Of a DNA stretch of 64,000 bases, positions 45,979 to 52,814 are shown piece after piece (within the stretch, counting starts at the first letter, position 1; each line of letters begins with the position of its first letter). Location of the stretch: contig CAYXPR010000003.1 of NCBI GenBank assembly GCA_964467255.1, positions 79,530 to 143,529 on the forward strand, in the 5' to 3' direction. A program made the translations under genes and the position numbers. This DNA is from an uncultured Rickettsiales bacterium (GTDB lineage Bacteria > Pseudomonadota > Alphaproteobacteria > Rickettsiales > RGZB01). Below the pieces are notes generated by a model. That model worked only from the letters and a program-made list of their open reading frames with translations. It had not been told where the DNA came from and did not search any database.

Positions 45979-46138
45979 TTAAGTCTCAGGGTTCCCACCC
46001 TTAGAGAATTAATGGCATTAAAAGCGCGCATTCCGGGCCACTCACGGGATACCAGCACTTCCCCACACTACTGAGAATACCCAAAATAGACCCCCAAAAG
46101 CCCACTTCTCTCAGTTTGCAAAAAACCAGTGTGGCGAA

Positions 46139-46603
46139 TCAAGATTTGAAGAAATCTACTGTTTTTATGTACGAAACACCAAAAACCTTAGCTACGCTTG
46201 GAATTTTCAACCTTTGTGGTTTCTGAGACTCATCTGTTATGATGGTAGCCCCATTATTTTTTGCATGAGCAATTAACCAAGGATCAGCCCAATTCGAGTC
46301 ATTTTCATTATCAAACCAATTCTGATATTGGGCTGCAATTTGCTTTACAATTTCTTGGTCAGCAACACAATATGACCTAGTGCTACTAATAAAACAACTG
46401 AGGCCCTCTAATAGCCTAATAAGTTCAGAATCTTCCTCTTTCTTCTCTACTAATCTAGCCTGCAGTTCACATTTAACTTCTTGGTGTATTAAGAAACCAC
46501 CTAAAGCGGCATATTCCTTGAATTTATTACGACAATGTTCGATTGGATGATAATCCGAGAAGTACTTAATCAAAGAGTTAGTGTCCCAAACATATTTTTG
46601 CAT
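46139..46603 (-). CDS. DUF4411-like PIN-superfamily nuclease (candidate toxin/effector)
   Basis: The start is trimmed to MQKYVWDTNSLIKYF. The N-terminal WDTN, ADPWLIAHAKNNGATIITDE and KIPSVAKVFGV match my recollection of DUF4411. The ATG lies 1 nt after the upstream stop (TAGCATG). Confidence 0.55.
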   Translation of the reverse strand: MQKYVWDTNSLIKYFSDYHPIEHCRNKFKEYAALGGFLIHQEVKCELQARLVEKKEEDSELIRLLEGLSCFISSTRSYCVADQEIVKQIAAQYQNWFDNENDSNWADPWLIAHAKNNGATIITDESQKPQRLKIPSVAKVFGVSYIKTVDFFKS

Positions 46604-46604
46604 G

Positions 46605-47741
46605 CTAACTCTTAACTTTAGATGCAATTCTGGCCATAATATCTAGGCAATACTTATCTTTTCTGCCTAAGTAATAATGTAAATCACTCTTGGAAATAAT
46701 ATTGCTACGGTAACCTGCATAAACCGCTTTACAATATTTTTGGCCCAACTGGTTAATGGTTGTATATAAGTGGGTATCTTTTCCGCCGCCCGAAGGTTTT
46801 TTTTCGGTCTTTCTTTTTTCATCCAATTCAATTTCAAGGATATTGTAGGCTTCTTGGCTAAGAATCTTGTTGTGTAACAATCTGAGCAATACAACATCTC
46901 TACTAATTTTGTATTTCTCAGAAATGTACTCGATCTCTTTCAGGCTTACGCTTTTATCTATAAGAGATGTTATGAGGGGATCATTACTCAAGTAAGAATC
47001 CGGCAATAAAACCTTTCCAGTAATGCTATTACACAATGCCTCAATCACAGAATGTTCGTATTCTGTTGTATCCGCGTTGTGGACCATACTGCTTTTAAGA
47101 AGTATATGAGCCAGTTCATGAATAATAGAAAATATCTGACCTGCAAGAACATCATTGGATGCTATTCCAATGATTGGCAAAATATCATTGTAGAGCGCCA
47201 ATCCTCGAAGACTTTTGTCTTTCGCGGGCATTTTGAACACTAAAATGTTTAGATCTTCTATTTTAGAAACCAAATATTCATAGAGACCTCTTTTGTCTAG
47301 TCTTTCCAGCCGCTCTTGGGAGGGGTAGATAGTGGAGGAAATGTAATCAATAATTTTTCTTTTTTCGGTTTCTTTAAAGGTAAGGAATTTAGGCATGATA
47401 TCTATATCTGTCGCGCTTGCTAAATAGAGATAACTTTGCCTTCTTTTTTGTAATTCTTCTGAGAGAACAATTACCTTGTAGTTTATATCGATTTTTTCAG
47501 ATCTAAATGTTCTAGTATCAAGCTTATCAATTCCTCCCACTGATTCAGGTTTTATTCTTGGACTTGATAAAAAGAAAGCAATTGGCCTTTTCAATTCTTT
47601 GGACAAGCCCTTTATTGAGCTTAACGTAGGCCTATCTGCAGCCCAAGACTCAATATCAGGGAACTTTCTTGATATGCCAGGATATGCCCTTAGCATCCAA
47701 TTTATGCAGTCATCATTTACGTGAATAATTATTTTTGTCAT
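46605..47741 (-). CDS. ImmA/IrrE-family zinc metallopeptidase (COG2856-like)
   Basis: 378 aa with HEXXH in FSIIHELAHILLKS. It has an N-terminal roughly 60-aa HTH-like segment and a C-terminal helical region. Confidence 0.65.
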   Translation of the reverse strand: MTKIIIHVNDDCINWMLRAYPGISRKFPDIESWAADRPTLSSIKGLSKELKRPIAFFLSSPRIKPESVGGIDKLDTRTFRSEKIDINYKVIVLSEELQKRRQSYLYLASATDIDIMPKFLTFKETEKRKIIDYISSTIYPSQERLERLDKRGLYEYLVSKIEDLNILVFKMPAKDKSLRGLALYNDILPIIGIASNDVLAGQIFSIIHELAHILLKSSMVHNADTTEYEHSVIEALCNSITGKVLLPDSYLSNDPLITSLIDKSVSLKEIEYISEKYKISRDVVLLRLLHNKILSQEAYNILEIELDEKRKTEKKPSGGGKDTHLYTTINQLGQKYCKAVYAGYRSNIISKSDLHYYLGRKDKYCLDIMARIASKVKS

Positions 47742-47810
47742 GCCGCCTCATATGGCCTTTCTAGCATTTAGATATCTAGCCGCACCAGAGAAATTTGCTC
47801 AACGGGATAT

Positions 47811-49352
47811 CTAAAAACCTAAGCTCTGAAAAATACACCTTCCTACATAGCCTTCTGAGAAGTTTTCGCGTGTAGCAATTTGGCGCAAAGTCAGGCCGTT
47901 GAAGTGCTCTTCCCGCCAGATAAGACCGCGCACCAAGTTTTTTAGCTCACCGGGCGGCAGATCAAACGGGTCTTTGGAGGAGTTAGCGGATTCGATTACT
48001 GCGACCTCCTTATGGTTCCGGAAATTCATGTGTGGGACTTCCAGCTGTTTCATAATGGGTTCTCCATCCAGTCCCCGTTTTCCCAGGCTGAGTTTCTTTG
48101 CAAGCTGACAGATATCGGCATGCAGAATCAGAGCCTCTCGCTCCACGGTGATTTTCTTCACCACGTCGTGGATGATTTCTCTCGCGGATAATGCGGCCTG
48201 TTTATCTACTGTCGTCTTAAGGTAATGCTGGTCCTCCACACAGTTGAGATTGAACAGCTCTGCCGCCAGTTCTGGAGTAGTGAGATGATGGCGGATGCCT
48301 TCCTCTACCTTTTTCTCCGTTTCAAAGGCGGACAGACGGTCGATAGGAGTTTTTGAAGTCCGGTTGTTCTGAATAATATCCTGTGTGACGTAGTAGCGGT
48401 ATTGTCTGCCATGCCTATTGGCAAACACCGGACTATAAGGCACCCCCTGCACACTGAAGAGCAGTCCCTTAAGCAGATTCACATCTCGGTTCTTTCTTTG
48501 GCCCCGGACAGTGGTTGACTGGCTCTCTAATTTTTCCTGCACGGCCTGCCACAGTTCCATGGAGATAATCGGCGGATGCTTGCCATCGTGGAATTCTCCC
48601 CCGTGTCGTATCTTTCCGATATAGATGGGATTCCTAAGAATTCTATAAAGGCCTCCGCGCACGAAAGTATGTGGACCGCGCGTCGAGCCATCTTTGTAGA
48701 CCCTGGGAATGCTTTTTATTTCCTTCTGCTTAAGGTCATGCATCAGCGGCCATACGGCGCCCAGCTCCAGATAACGTTTGAAGATATACCGAACCTTTTC
48801 TGCCTGTTCCTCATCTATGATCAATTCCCGACCCTTGGTAACGTAGCCGATGGGCACGACACCACCCATCCACATACCCTTCTTCTTACTGGCGGCAATC
48901 TTGTCCCGGATACGTTCGCCGGTTACTTCACGCTCGAACTGTGCGAAGGAGAGAAGCACGTTGAGCGTAAGCCTGCCCATGGAAGTGGTGGTATTGAAGG
49001 ACTGAGTCACGCTCACAAAGGTAACACCATGCTGGTCAAATATTTCAACCAATTTGGAAAAATCCATAAGTGAGCGGGTAAGGCGGTCGATCTTATACAC
49101 CACCACAATATGAACTTTACCTTCCTTGATATCCTCCAGCAGTTTCTTAAGGCCCGGGCGTTCCATATTGCCGCCGCTGAATCCACCATCGCTGTATCCC
49201 GTTTCCACCGCCTGCCAGCCTTCCGCCTTCTGGCTGGCGATATATGCTAGGCAGGACTCCTTCTGTGCATCCAGTGAATTGAAATCCTGCTCCAGACCCT
49301 CCTCGGAGGACTTGCGAGTATAGACAGCACAATGTCTGGTTGCGGGCTTCAT
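47811..49352 (-). CDS. large serine recombinase/integrase
   Basis: 513 aa. It has a resolvase catalytic N-domain (CAVYTRKSSEEGLEQDFNSLDAQ ... VVVYKIDRLTRS) and a recombinase domain (...GGVVPIGY...). Confidence 0.9.
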   Translation of the reverse strand: MKPATRHCAVYTRKSSEEGLEQDFNSLDAQKESCLAYIASQKAEGWQAVETGYSDGGFSGGNMERPGLKKLLEDIKEGKVHIVVVYKIDRLTRSLMDFSKLVEIFDQHGVTFVSVTQSFNTTTSMGRLTLNVLLSFAQFEREVTGERIRDKIAASKKKGMWMGGVVPIGYVTKGRELIIDEEQAEKVRYIFKRYLELGAVWPLMHDLKQKEIKSIPRVYKDGSTRGPHTFVRGGLYRILRNPIYIGKIRHGGEFHDGKHPPIISMELWQAVQEKLESQSTTVRGQRKNRDVNLLKGLLFSVQGVPYSPVFANRHGRQYRYYVTQDIIQNNRTSKTPIDRLSAFETEKKVEEGIRHHLTTPELAAELFNLNCVEDQHYLKTTVDKQAALSAREIIHDVVKKITVEREALILHADICQLAKKLSLGKRGLDGEPIMKQLEVPHMNFRNHKEVAVIESANSSKDPFDLPPGELKNLVRGLIWREEHFNGLTLRQIATRENFSEGYVGRCIFQSLGF

Positions 49353-52377: not shown

Positions 52378-52386
52378 TCAACAAAT

Positions 52387-52417
52387 ATCCTGTTTTGGGA
52401 TAATCCGAAAACAGGAT
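52387..52417. promoter_or_regulatory. 31-bp near-perfect palindrome, candidate operator in divergent promoter region
   Basis: In ATCCTGTTTTgGGATaATCCgAAAACAGGAT, 28 of 31 positions are symmetric, including perfect 10-bp outer arms. It lies between the 165-aa gene (-) and the XRE gene (+). Confidence 0.5.
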
Positions 52418-52460
52418 TAGCTCTTTATGCGCACCCTATCAACTCATTACTGCGCATATT

Positions 52461-52694
52461 GTGAAAAAAAGCATTTACTCCAAGAAATCTGAAGAACTAC
52501 AAGAGCTTTTAGTCAAAGCACGGCTGGATGCTGGCCTCACTCAGCAACAGCTGGCCGAGAAACTGGGCAAACATCAATCTTTTGTAGCAAAGTACGAAAA
52601 TGGTGAGCGCAGACTTGATTTGATAGAGTTTCTAAATATTGCCAGAGAATTAAAAATTAACCCACTCAAGATCGTAAAAGACCTGATTAGTTAA
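52461..52694 (+). CDS. XRE-family helix-turn-helix transcriptional regulator (GTG start)
   Basis: 77 aa. LTQQQLAEKLGKHQSFVAKYENGERRLDLIEFLNIAREL is a canonical HTH_3/XRE sequence. Confidence 0.8.
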   Translation: MKKSIYSKKSEELQELLVKARLDAGLTQQQLAEKLGKHQSFVAKYENGERRLDLIEFLNIARELKINPLKIVKDLIS

Positions 52695-52814
52695 CCAGCC
52701 GCCATTTTCCATAAGAGACATTATAAATGATAATGTCCTGATAGCGCCATCTGTTAACTTGGGCTCTTGATTATCTAGACCAGTTCCCTAGCTATTATCT
52801 TCCTTCTTGAATTT

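Follow-up and report, generated by a model that had tools for sequence, protein, structure and literature searches.

A serine-recombinase island at the 3′ end of a tRNA-Ser(GCU) gene in a Rickettsiales genome

How does an island come to lie at the very end of a tRNA gene when the recombinase that it carries is of the serine type? The question is raised by a window of 64,000 nucleotides (the whole stretch of DNA analysed, C3:79530-143529, in a Rickettsiales genome of 2.02 Mb in 38 contigs, G000), in which a foreign, recombinase-bearing island lies at the 3′ end of tRNA-Ser(GCU), the sole gene with a GCU anticodon found in the genome by ARAGORN. Positions without a prefix are those of the window. 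The probable answer is that residues 45981-52706 form a discrete integrative island of 6.7 kb, placed at the tRNA end by its own large serine recombinase (LSR) and heading a longer array. Gene families were assigned with Pfam and the tRNA with ARAGORN and Rfam, and PHROGs and PADLOC were also searched. The elements of the proposed site, with strand, are the following.

45887-45978, +, tRNA-Ser(GCU), proposed target and B arm of attL (ARAGORN; Rfam tRNA, 56.8 bits)
45973-45980, +, core copy 1, CCGCCATT, comprising the final 6 nt of the tRNA and TT, proposed attL crossover
45981-46135, +, island-side leader, proposed P′ arm (conserved in the related genomes G015, at 72-81%, and G002, to 46076)
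47811-49352, -, LSR, 513 aa, intact (Resolvase 4.4e-40, Recombinase 2e-13; PHROG integrase 4e-96)
49353-49769, -, DUF2924 partner, 138 aa (Pfam 2.7e-37), abutting the LSR start with no gap
52699-52706, +, core copy 2, CCGCCATT, proposed as attR of the 6.7-kb island and as left border of an older block
52707-64000 in the window, -, second unit of 31 kb, starting at 52707 and ending at core copy 3 (C9:4815-4822)

The GC content is 0.548 in 38000-45978, 0.445 in 45981-52706 and 0.547 in 52707-64000 (0.516 in the genome), which bears out by calculation the discontinuity that a sequence-only reading of the window had seen by eye. The fall starts at most ~100 nt past the tRNA end, and the recovery is sharp, at ~52.7-52.8 kb. 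Within the island the dip is patchy: the genes for a DUF4411 protein and an ImmA-type peptidase are at 0.36, that for a DUF5681 protein at 0.40 and that for a helix-turn-helix (HTH) regulator at 0.39. The AT-rich shift thus holds for the cargo genes (0.36) and not for the LSR and DUF2924 genes, which at 0.50-0.53 are host-like.

In the only genome of the same genus (G001), the left flank is 91% identical as far as 45982, which is four bases beyond the tRNA end, and nothing matches from 45982 to the end of C3, so that the genes of the island are not shared at this locus by all relatives. Homology to G001 returns at C9:4945 (87-93% identity). Contigs C3 and C9 overlap by 55 identical nt and join into one RND pump gene of 1051 aa, and C9 therefore continues C3. 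Since the homology stops at 45982 and resumes at C9:4945, the accessory stretch at the tRNA measures ~37.8 kb. Just past its own tRNA-Ser, G001 has a 24-bp perfect inverted repeat, CCGCTCCGCCATTAAAAAAGCCCC ... GGGGCTTTTTTAATGGCGGAGCGG (L025:19640-19700), composed of the 3′ end of the tRNA, a terminator stem rich in GC and the same tRNA end again in inverted orientation.

The octamer CCGCCATT stands at both edges of the island. Core copy 2 is found within the 120-nt gap between the stop codon of the HTH gene, 4 nt ahead of it, and the stop of ackA2, at the GC rise. A third copy, ~38 kb off at C9:4815-4822, lies just ahead of the point where G001 homology resumes, within the 315 nt that separate this point from the remnant of a second LSR; it is preceded by bases resembling the tRNA acceptor arm, with 15/21 matching. 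Genome-wide, the octamer occurs once per 18.6 kb per strand, and the joint chance of copies 2 and 3 being so placed is ~1e-4, or ~1e-3 allowing for the choice of the 8-mer. These statistics are suggestive. The sequence-only reading had considered that the 8-mer could be a chance match; it is probably the recombination core, because it has the same register as the repeat CCACCATTTA of the temperate phage AcaML1 and a third copy stands at the far edge of the array. In a survey of the mobile elements of Acidithiobacillus caldus, the tmRNA gene is listed as the attB of AcaML1 and the direct repeats measure 10 bp (PMC3826726); the AcaML1 record (JX507079) starts and ends with CCACCATTTA, in which the final six bases of the tmRNA are followed by TTTA. 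In relatives with islands at the same tRNA, the divergence from the window comes directly after CCGCCA (G037), CCGCCAT (G030) or CCGCCATTAA (G001), points that fit crossing over right at the extremity of the tRNA gene. Otherwise no tRNA-derived repeat marks the right edge, as had been noted: nothing is found beyond the 8-mer except an 11-nt match across the remaining 33 kb of the contig (at L028:7974, the best in the 33 kb after the tRNA), which on inspection is due to chance.

Is an LSR at a tRNA end an exception? We gathered 160 related loci, with 42-59% LSR identity, from contigs of genomes and metagenomes, and counted tRNAs at the 89 loci that cover the C-terminus of the LSR and 700 nt or more downstream. 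A tRNA on the opposite strand lies within 1.5 kb of the LSR stop in 34/89 (38%; median distance 376 nt), against a background of 0.8% per 1.5 kb on the other side of the LSR gene, and 22 of these 34 convergent tRNAs are tRNA-Ser. At nine further loci, the convergent tRNA is 1.5-9 kb from the LSR stop; two of the farther loci have a partial tRNA copy in between, which shows that a second element has stacked in. In the window, 1.8 kb separate the tRNA-Ser end from the LSR stop, and a pair of cargo genes occupies this space. The adjacency of LSR and tRNA recurs across phyla with tyrosine integrases absent, such an LSR occurs in 82/401 genomes of the order, and in G015, G030, and G037 the LSRs sit beside this very tRNA-Ser(GCU). 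For this clade, it is therefore wrong to assume that LSRs do not normally target tRNA ends, the more so as there are precedents in AcaML1 and in phiRSM1 and phiRSM3, filamentous phages of Ralstonia whose serine recombinase was shown experimentally to use a 13-nt core equal to the 3′ end of tRNA-Ser(UCG) (PMC3816273). The Islander paper (PMC4383910) has tRNA genes as a known target of tyrosine integrases only, and not of serine integrases; tRNA targeting by serine integrases is documented in isolated cases and is not generally recognised. One small relative is an AT-rich element of ~5.5 kb at a tRNA-Ser(UGA) (L046). The short end repeats noticed in related loci are a few 10-11-mers, about the number due to chance, with one at L046 inside a gene.

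The island LSR has the catalytic motifs YTRKSS, near the N-terminus, and DRLTRS; the resolvase domain with the serine nucleophile is present and is followed by the Recombinase domain PF07508 (2e-13, residues 181-277). Pfam gives no match to Zn_ribbon_recom at E<=0.01, and the region where it is expected (LLFSVQG...RYYVT) is without cysteines. In the C-terminal third of the LSR (47811-48300), the usual region of a Cys4 zinc ribbon is cysteine-free, and the last ~50 residues resemble an extra HTH (LTLRQIATRENFSEGYVGR). Upstream, the DUF2924 gene abuts the LSR start in 130/147 related loci. Its predicted fold has a three-helix part and a small sheet (pLDDT 82) and finds no match among PDB folds (best E = 1.2); because this confident model matches no solved structure, no function can be read from it. 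From the fixed gene order, the DUF2924 protein may be a recombinase partner or a directionality factor.

The Resolvase and Recombinase architecture is common to the integrases of phiC31, Bxb1, A118, and TP901-1, for which, as for the island, a short core without long repeats is expected. The Bxb1 core is 8 bp. Integrases of the phiC31 type use protein-coding or intergenic sites and have Cys4 zinc ribbons and unlinked directionality factors, whereas in the clade of the island the targets are tRNA ends, no Cys-type ribbon is detectable and the DUF2924 gene is a partner fused into the operon. AcaML1 is the best phage match: its LSR (Gp3/Gp2) is 50% identical over 71% of the length, Gp4 is a DUF2924 protein encoded directly upstream of the LSR (36% identical to that of the island), the target is also the 3′ end of a tRNA-like gene and the repeat registers are alike (CCACCATTTA there, CCGCCATT here). 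AcaML1 is, however, a complete myovirus of 59 kb with a tmRNA target, whereas here 6.7 kb without virion, replication or lysis genes are found at a tRNA; and the P arm of AcaML1 mimics the T-arm of tmRNA, with no such mimic at 52660-52698 here. With phiRSM the island shares its proposed type of site, a serine recombinase acting at the 3′ end of a serine tRNA through a short core. Unlike the island, phiRSM is an inovirus with a small recombinase of the resolvase/invertase type (ORF14) and no DUF2924 partner.

We thus favour a mechanism in which the island LSR, together with the DUF2924 protein, whose gene lies immediately upstream, would insert the island at the extreme 3′ end of tRNA-Ser(GCU), with the crossover falling within the short common core CCGCCATT (the last six bases of the tRNA and TT). 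Because the exchange would stay within this core, the tRNA would remain intact and no long tRNA-derived repeat would arise. The cargo slot, which runs from the proposed att site to the LSR gene, carries a putative toxin-antitoxin pair. The island would be the newest unit, at the head of a tandem accretion of 37.8 kb at the tRNA, and is followed by a 31-kb horizontally acquired block with polyhydroxyalkanoate (PHA) and metal-resistance genes, ending at the third core and the remnants of a second LSR. That the island heads a tandem array is suggested by the third CCGCCATT, 38 kb off, at the resumed homology to the sister genome. The island may still be mobile.

Several observations weigh against this explanation. 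A fourth CCGCCATT is present in a coding region of the array (C3:153930) and, with a copy inside a gene, the 8-mer is too common to stand alone. The reconstructed attP and attB show dyad symmetry no better than random joins (z ~0.2); a CCTGA/TTAA symmetry seen by eye was dropped, since the att sites scored like random joins. The predicted sequence of the empty site has no match in the metagenome contigs, and G001 has no clean empty site, all three tRNA loci being rearranged there and carrying other islands. The only close LSR relative, in G015 (68%; a genome of a different family), is on a contig that stops before the right edge of the island; in the metagenome contigs and ~400 genomes of the order there is none closer, the next best being at 48-59%. 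A tandem array also needs integration at an occupied site, which, to our knowledge, classical serine integrases do not perform. Finally, the leader that follows the tRNA has AGTC at +3, AGAGAAT at +26 and then a hairpin, features common to ~12 relatives at different tRNAs, and neither the window nor the remainder of the contig has a mirror copy of the motif AGTC-N-AGAGAAT. In G002, the first ~98 nt after the tRNA are 83-90% identical to 45979-46076 and lead into a tyrosine integrase island, so that this "P arm" is not exclusive to LSR elements. In an alignment of the sequences to the right of the core with the tRNA leaders on C2 and C5, the fit was unconvincing.

The shared leader of G002 raises the alternative that a P4-type tyrosine integrase island occupied the tRNA first and that the LSR module came later as a passenger or a replacement. 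P4-type tRNA islands (of the Islander type) fill the same niche, form tandem arrays at one tRNA and, in G002, use this very tRNA; moreover, other tRNAs, here and in G001, are accompanied by 3′ tRNA fragments of the kind typical for tyrosine integrases. Such islands leave a displaced tRNA fragment of 20-80 nt, yet no fragment longer than 11 nt is present in the array. Neither the open reading frames nor Pfam reveal a tyrosine integrase gene or remnant in 45979-52800, and the clade pairs LSR and tRNA across phyla without tyrosine integrases. We consider this order of events highly improbable. The G002 locus itself (L030:1-11243) has, at tRNA-Ser(GCU), the P4-type tyrosine integrase with AlpA, AAA_15/AbiEii-like, AbiV, and OLD-type genes.

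A second alternative concerns the right edge. The second unit encodes, by Pfam, a second acetate kinase (the housekeeping one being encoded on C2), MaoC-PTA, PPK2, SDR, PhaC, a phasin, and two P-type ATPases, followed past 64000 by a CusCBA-type efflux pump, MerR regulators, and a second RND pump. A single island of ~38 kb, running from the tRNA to C9:4822 with the LSR module as its integration end and the PHA and metal genes as cargo, would make the core at 52699 a chance match. The whole 38 kb are absent from G001, related modules (on C5 here and on C12 in G015) carry metal-efflux cargo right beside DUF2924, the outer core copy has the extra upstream tRNA-like bases (15/21), and the 8-mer does occur by chance elsewhere in the array. 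Three points argue otherwise: the sharp GC shift at 52.7-52.8 kb coincides with the internal core; G015 has the LSR island on one contig and the PHA/metal block on another, away from the tRNA; and the block is 80-85% identical to G015 in DNA, the LSR region merely 65-76%. Different identities to G015 imply different histories for the two parts, and we hold a single island to be unlikely. Since the core genes of G015 are only ~65% identical, the block at 80-85% points to a fairly recent horizontal transfer. These figures and the absence of the entire ~38 kb from G001 agree with the earlier suggestion that the metabolic and metal genes downstream belong to a larger composite. The genes in 52815-59422 and beyond the window have the look of a PHA/acyl-phosphate module that can be transferred, with P-type ATPases and Cus-type pumps linked to it.

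At the far end of the array, the remnant of the second LSR (C9:4532-4630) is 80% identical to the 3′ end of the island LSR. An inverted pair of the 11-mer ACCGCCATTTC, at C9:4346-4356 (-) and 4814-4824 (+) (L116), flanks scrambled LSR fragments (C9:4464-4490 and 4532-4630) and may be the trace of an inversion made by a recombinase or of a decayed third element. A non-coding repeat of ~150 nt (71-76% identity) occurs in L116:4308-4453, in this genome at C2:154515-154635 and in G015 at C10:16234-16391.

What does the island itself encode? Besides the LSR and DUF2924 genes it contains the following.

46139-46627, -, DUF4411/PIN-like protein, 162 aa, candidate toxin, 36% GC (Pfam DUF4411 6.7e-21, PIN 2.4e-5)
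46605-47741, -, HTH and ImmA/IrrE M78 peptidase, 378 aa, antitoxin-like (Peptidase_M78 6.6e-11; PADLOC RmrA 2.9e-14)
49824-50336, -, DUF5681 protein, 170 aa (Pfam 1e-21; phrog_26239, no annotated function)
50329-51663, -, ParB_N and N6/N4 DNA methyltransferase (N6_N4_MTase), 444 aa (Pfam; phrog_498 4e-125; PADLOC MTase_II 1.6e-84)
51880-52377, -, orphan, 165 aa, divergent from the HTH gene (no Pfam, PHROGs or PADLOC match)
52461-52694, +, XRE/Cro-type HTH regulator, 77 aa (Pfam HTH_3 1.7e-13)

Eight clear genes are counted, one fewer than the sequence-only reading had claimed. The hallmark families that it named (LSR, DUF2924, DUF5681, ParB_N/methyltransferase) are each matched by Pfam, and the tight packing that it described is confirmed, with a 0-nt gap between DUF2924 and LSR (49352/49353) and an overlap of 8 nt between ParB/methyltransferase and DUF5681. 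The four hallmark genes form a conserved module, of which this genome has three copies. G015 also has the module, and there the LSR, DUF2924, and ParB/methyltransferase proteins are 68%, 69%, and 57% identical to those of the island. Elsewhere, the ParB/methyltransferase gene accompanies the LSR in 48/62 long related loci. In the G015 homologue, TerL stands between DUF2924 and DUF5681; the island has no TerL there, just 54 nt. A role as small terminase is suspected for the DUF5681 protein. Pfam and PHROGs find no capsid, virion, lysis, replication or transfer genes among the eight, and the island is a reduced, TerL-less member of a widespread, little-studied, phage-derived, capsid-less family with an LSR-DUF2924 and then DUF5681-ParB/methylase backbone, often with TerL between.

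The missing TerL could also mean that the island is a stranded, immobile remnant of a larger terminase-carrying island or prophage, with a deletion scar as its right edge. The mere 54 nt left in the TerL slot, the lack of replication, packaging-motor, and transfer genes and the scrambled LSR fragments on C9, which show decay within the array, would all suit such a history. Against it, all eight reading frames are intact and closely packed, the core repeat comes 4 nt past the last gene, and TerL is commonly missing: among related loci whose sequence extends 5 kb or more upstream of the LSR, TerL is detectable in ~40% and gives no match in ~60%, while most of these loci have the ParB/methyltransferase gene. 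A stranded remnant therefore seems quite unlikely to us. The only TerL-like match in this genome is on C10, where an insert of 3.4 kb with respect to G001 (C10:28402-31784) has a TerL-like gene 41% identical to the terminase of the G015 island.

Returning to the discrete island, its cargo is putatively a RosmerTA-like toxin-antitoxin pair, formed by the DUF4411 PIN protein and the HTH-M78 protein, whose genes overlap (46139-46627 and 46605-47741). The 378-aa protein fits the RmrA (HTH-M78) models and, as in RosmerTA, its gene overlaps a small upstream putative toxin gene. The partner here differs in being a DUF4411/PIN protein without a match in PADLOC, hence without the RmrT toxin model, and a defence role is putative. 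As a whole, the island resembles the phage-inducible chromosomal islands (PICIs) and staphylococcal pathogenicity islands (SaPIs), which are likewise small, with the integrase at one end, a divergent HTH pair, defence cargo and no capsid genes, and whose phage-derived packaging-related genes parallel the TerL of the G015 relative; but PICIs have tyrosine integrases and functions for replication and helper interference, none of which is seen in the island.

The two other modules of this genome are behind tRNA-Gln(UUG) on C2 and tRNA-Ala(GGC) on C5. The C5 module has a CusCBA operon in the DUF2924-DUF5681 slot and copper-resistance genes with DUF4238 in the slot between tRNA and LSR. After tRNA-Ala(GGC), in C5:1149-23154 (L201, L202), a unit of ~174 nt that begins with the last bases of the tRNA is present three times (C5:1219, 1445, 4034), and past these repeats the order is flavohaemoglobin, CopB, multicopper oxidase, Cu-ATPase, DUF4238, LSR-DUF2924, CusCBA, DUF5681, and ParB/methyltransferase. 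The third LSR module, behind tRNA-Gln(UUG), is at C2:131905-138536, and a 66-nt 3′ fragment of tRNA-Gln opens C10; from the fragment and the module together, tyrosine- and serine-type islands seem to be stacked at tRNA-Gln.

As a conjecture to which we give little credence so far, the LSRs of this clade may recognise little else than the half-site on the tRNA side and the CCA-containing core and so stack islands at occupied tRNA ends, with DUF2924 as a built-in specificity or directionality subunit and the 6.7-kb form as a minimal mobile hitch-hiker. If true, this minimal terminase-less form would spread defence and metal-resistance cargo among small-genome freshwater alphaproteobacteria. At the level of the family, a whole LSR clade targets tRNA ends, usually with the uncharacterised DUF2924 partner, and because the apparent core is ~8 bp including the CCA end, island finders that search for tRNA fragments would miss it. 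Serine integrases with such short, well-defined, highly conserved natural targets are possible tools for genome engineering. In this lineage, since three modules head accessory regions in a genome of 2 Mb, with defence, copper/silver efflux, and PHA genes, the family would be a main route of gene gain.

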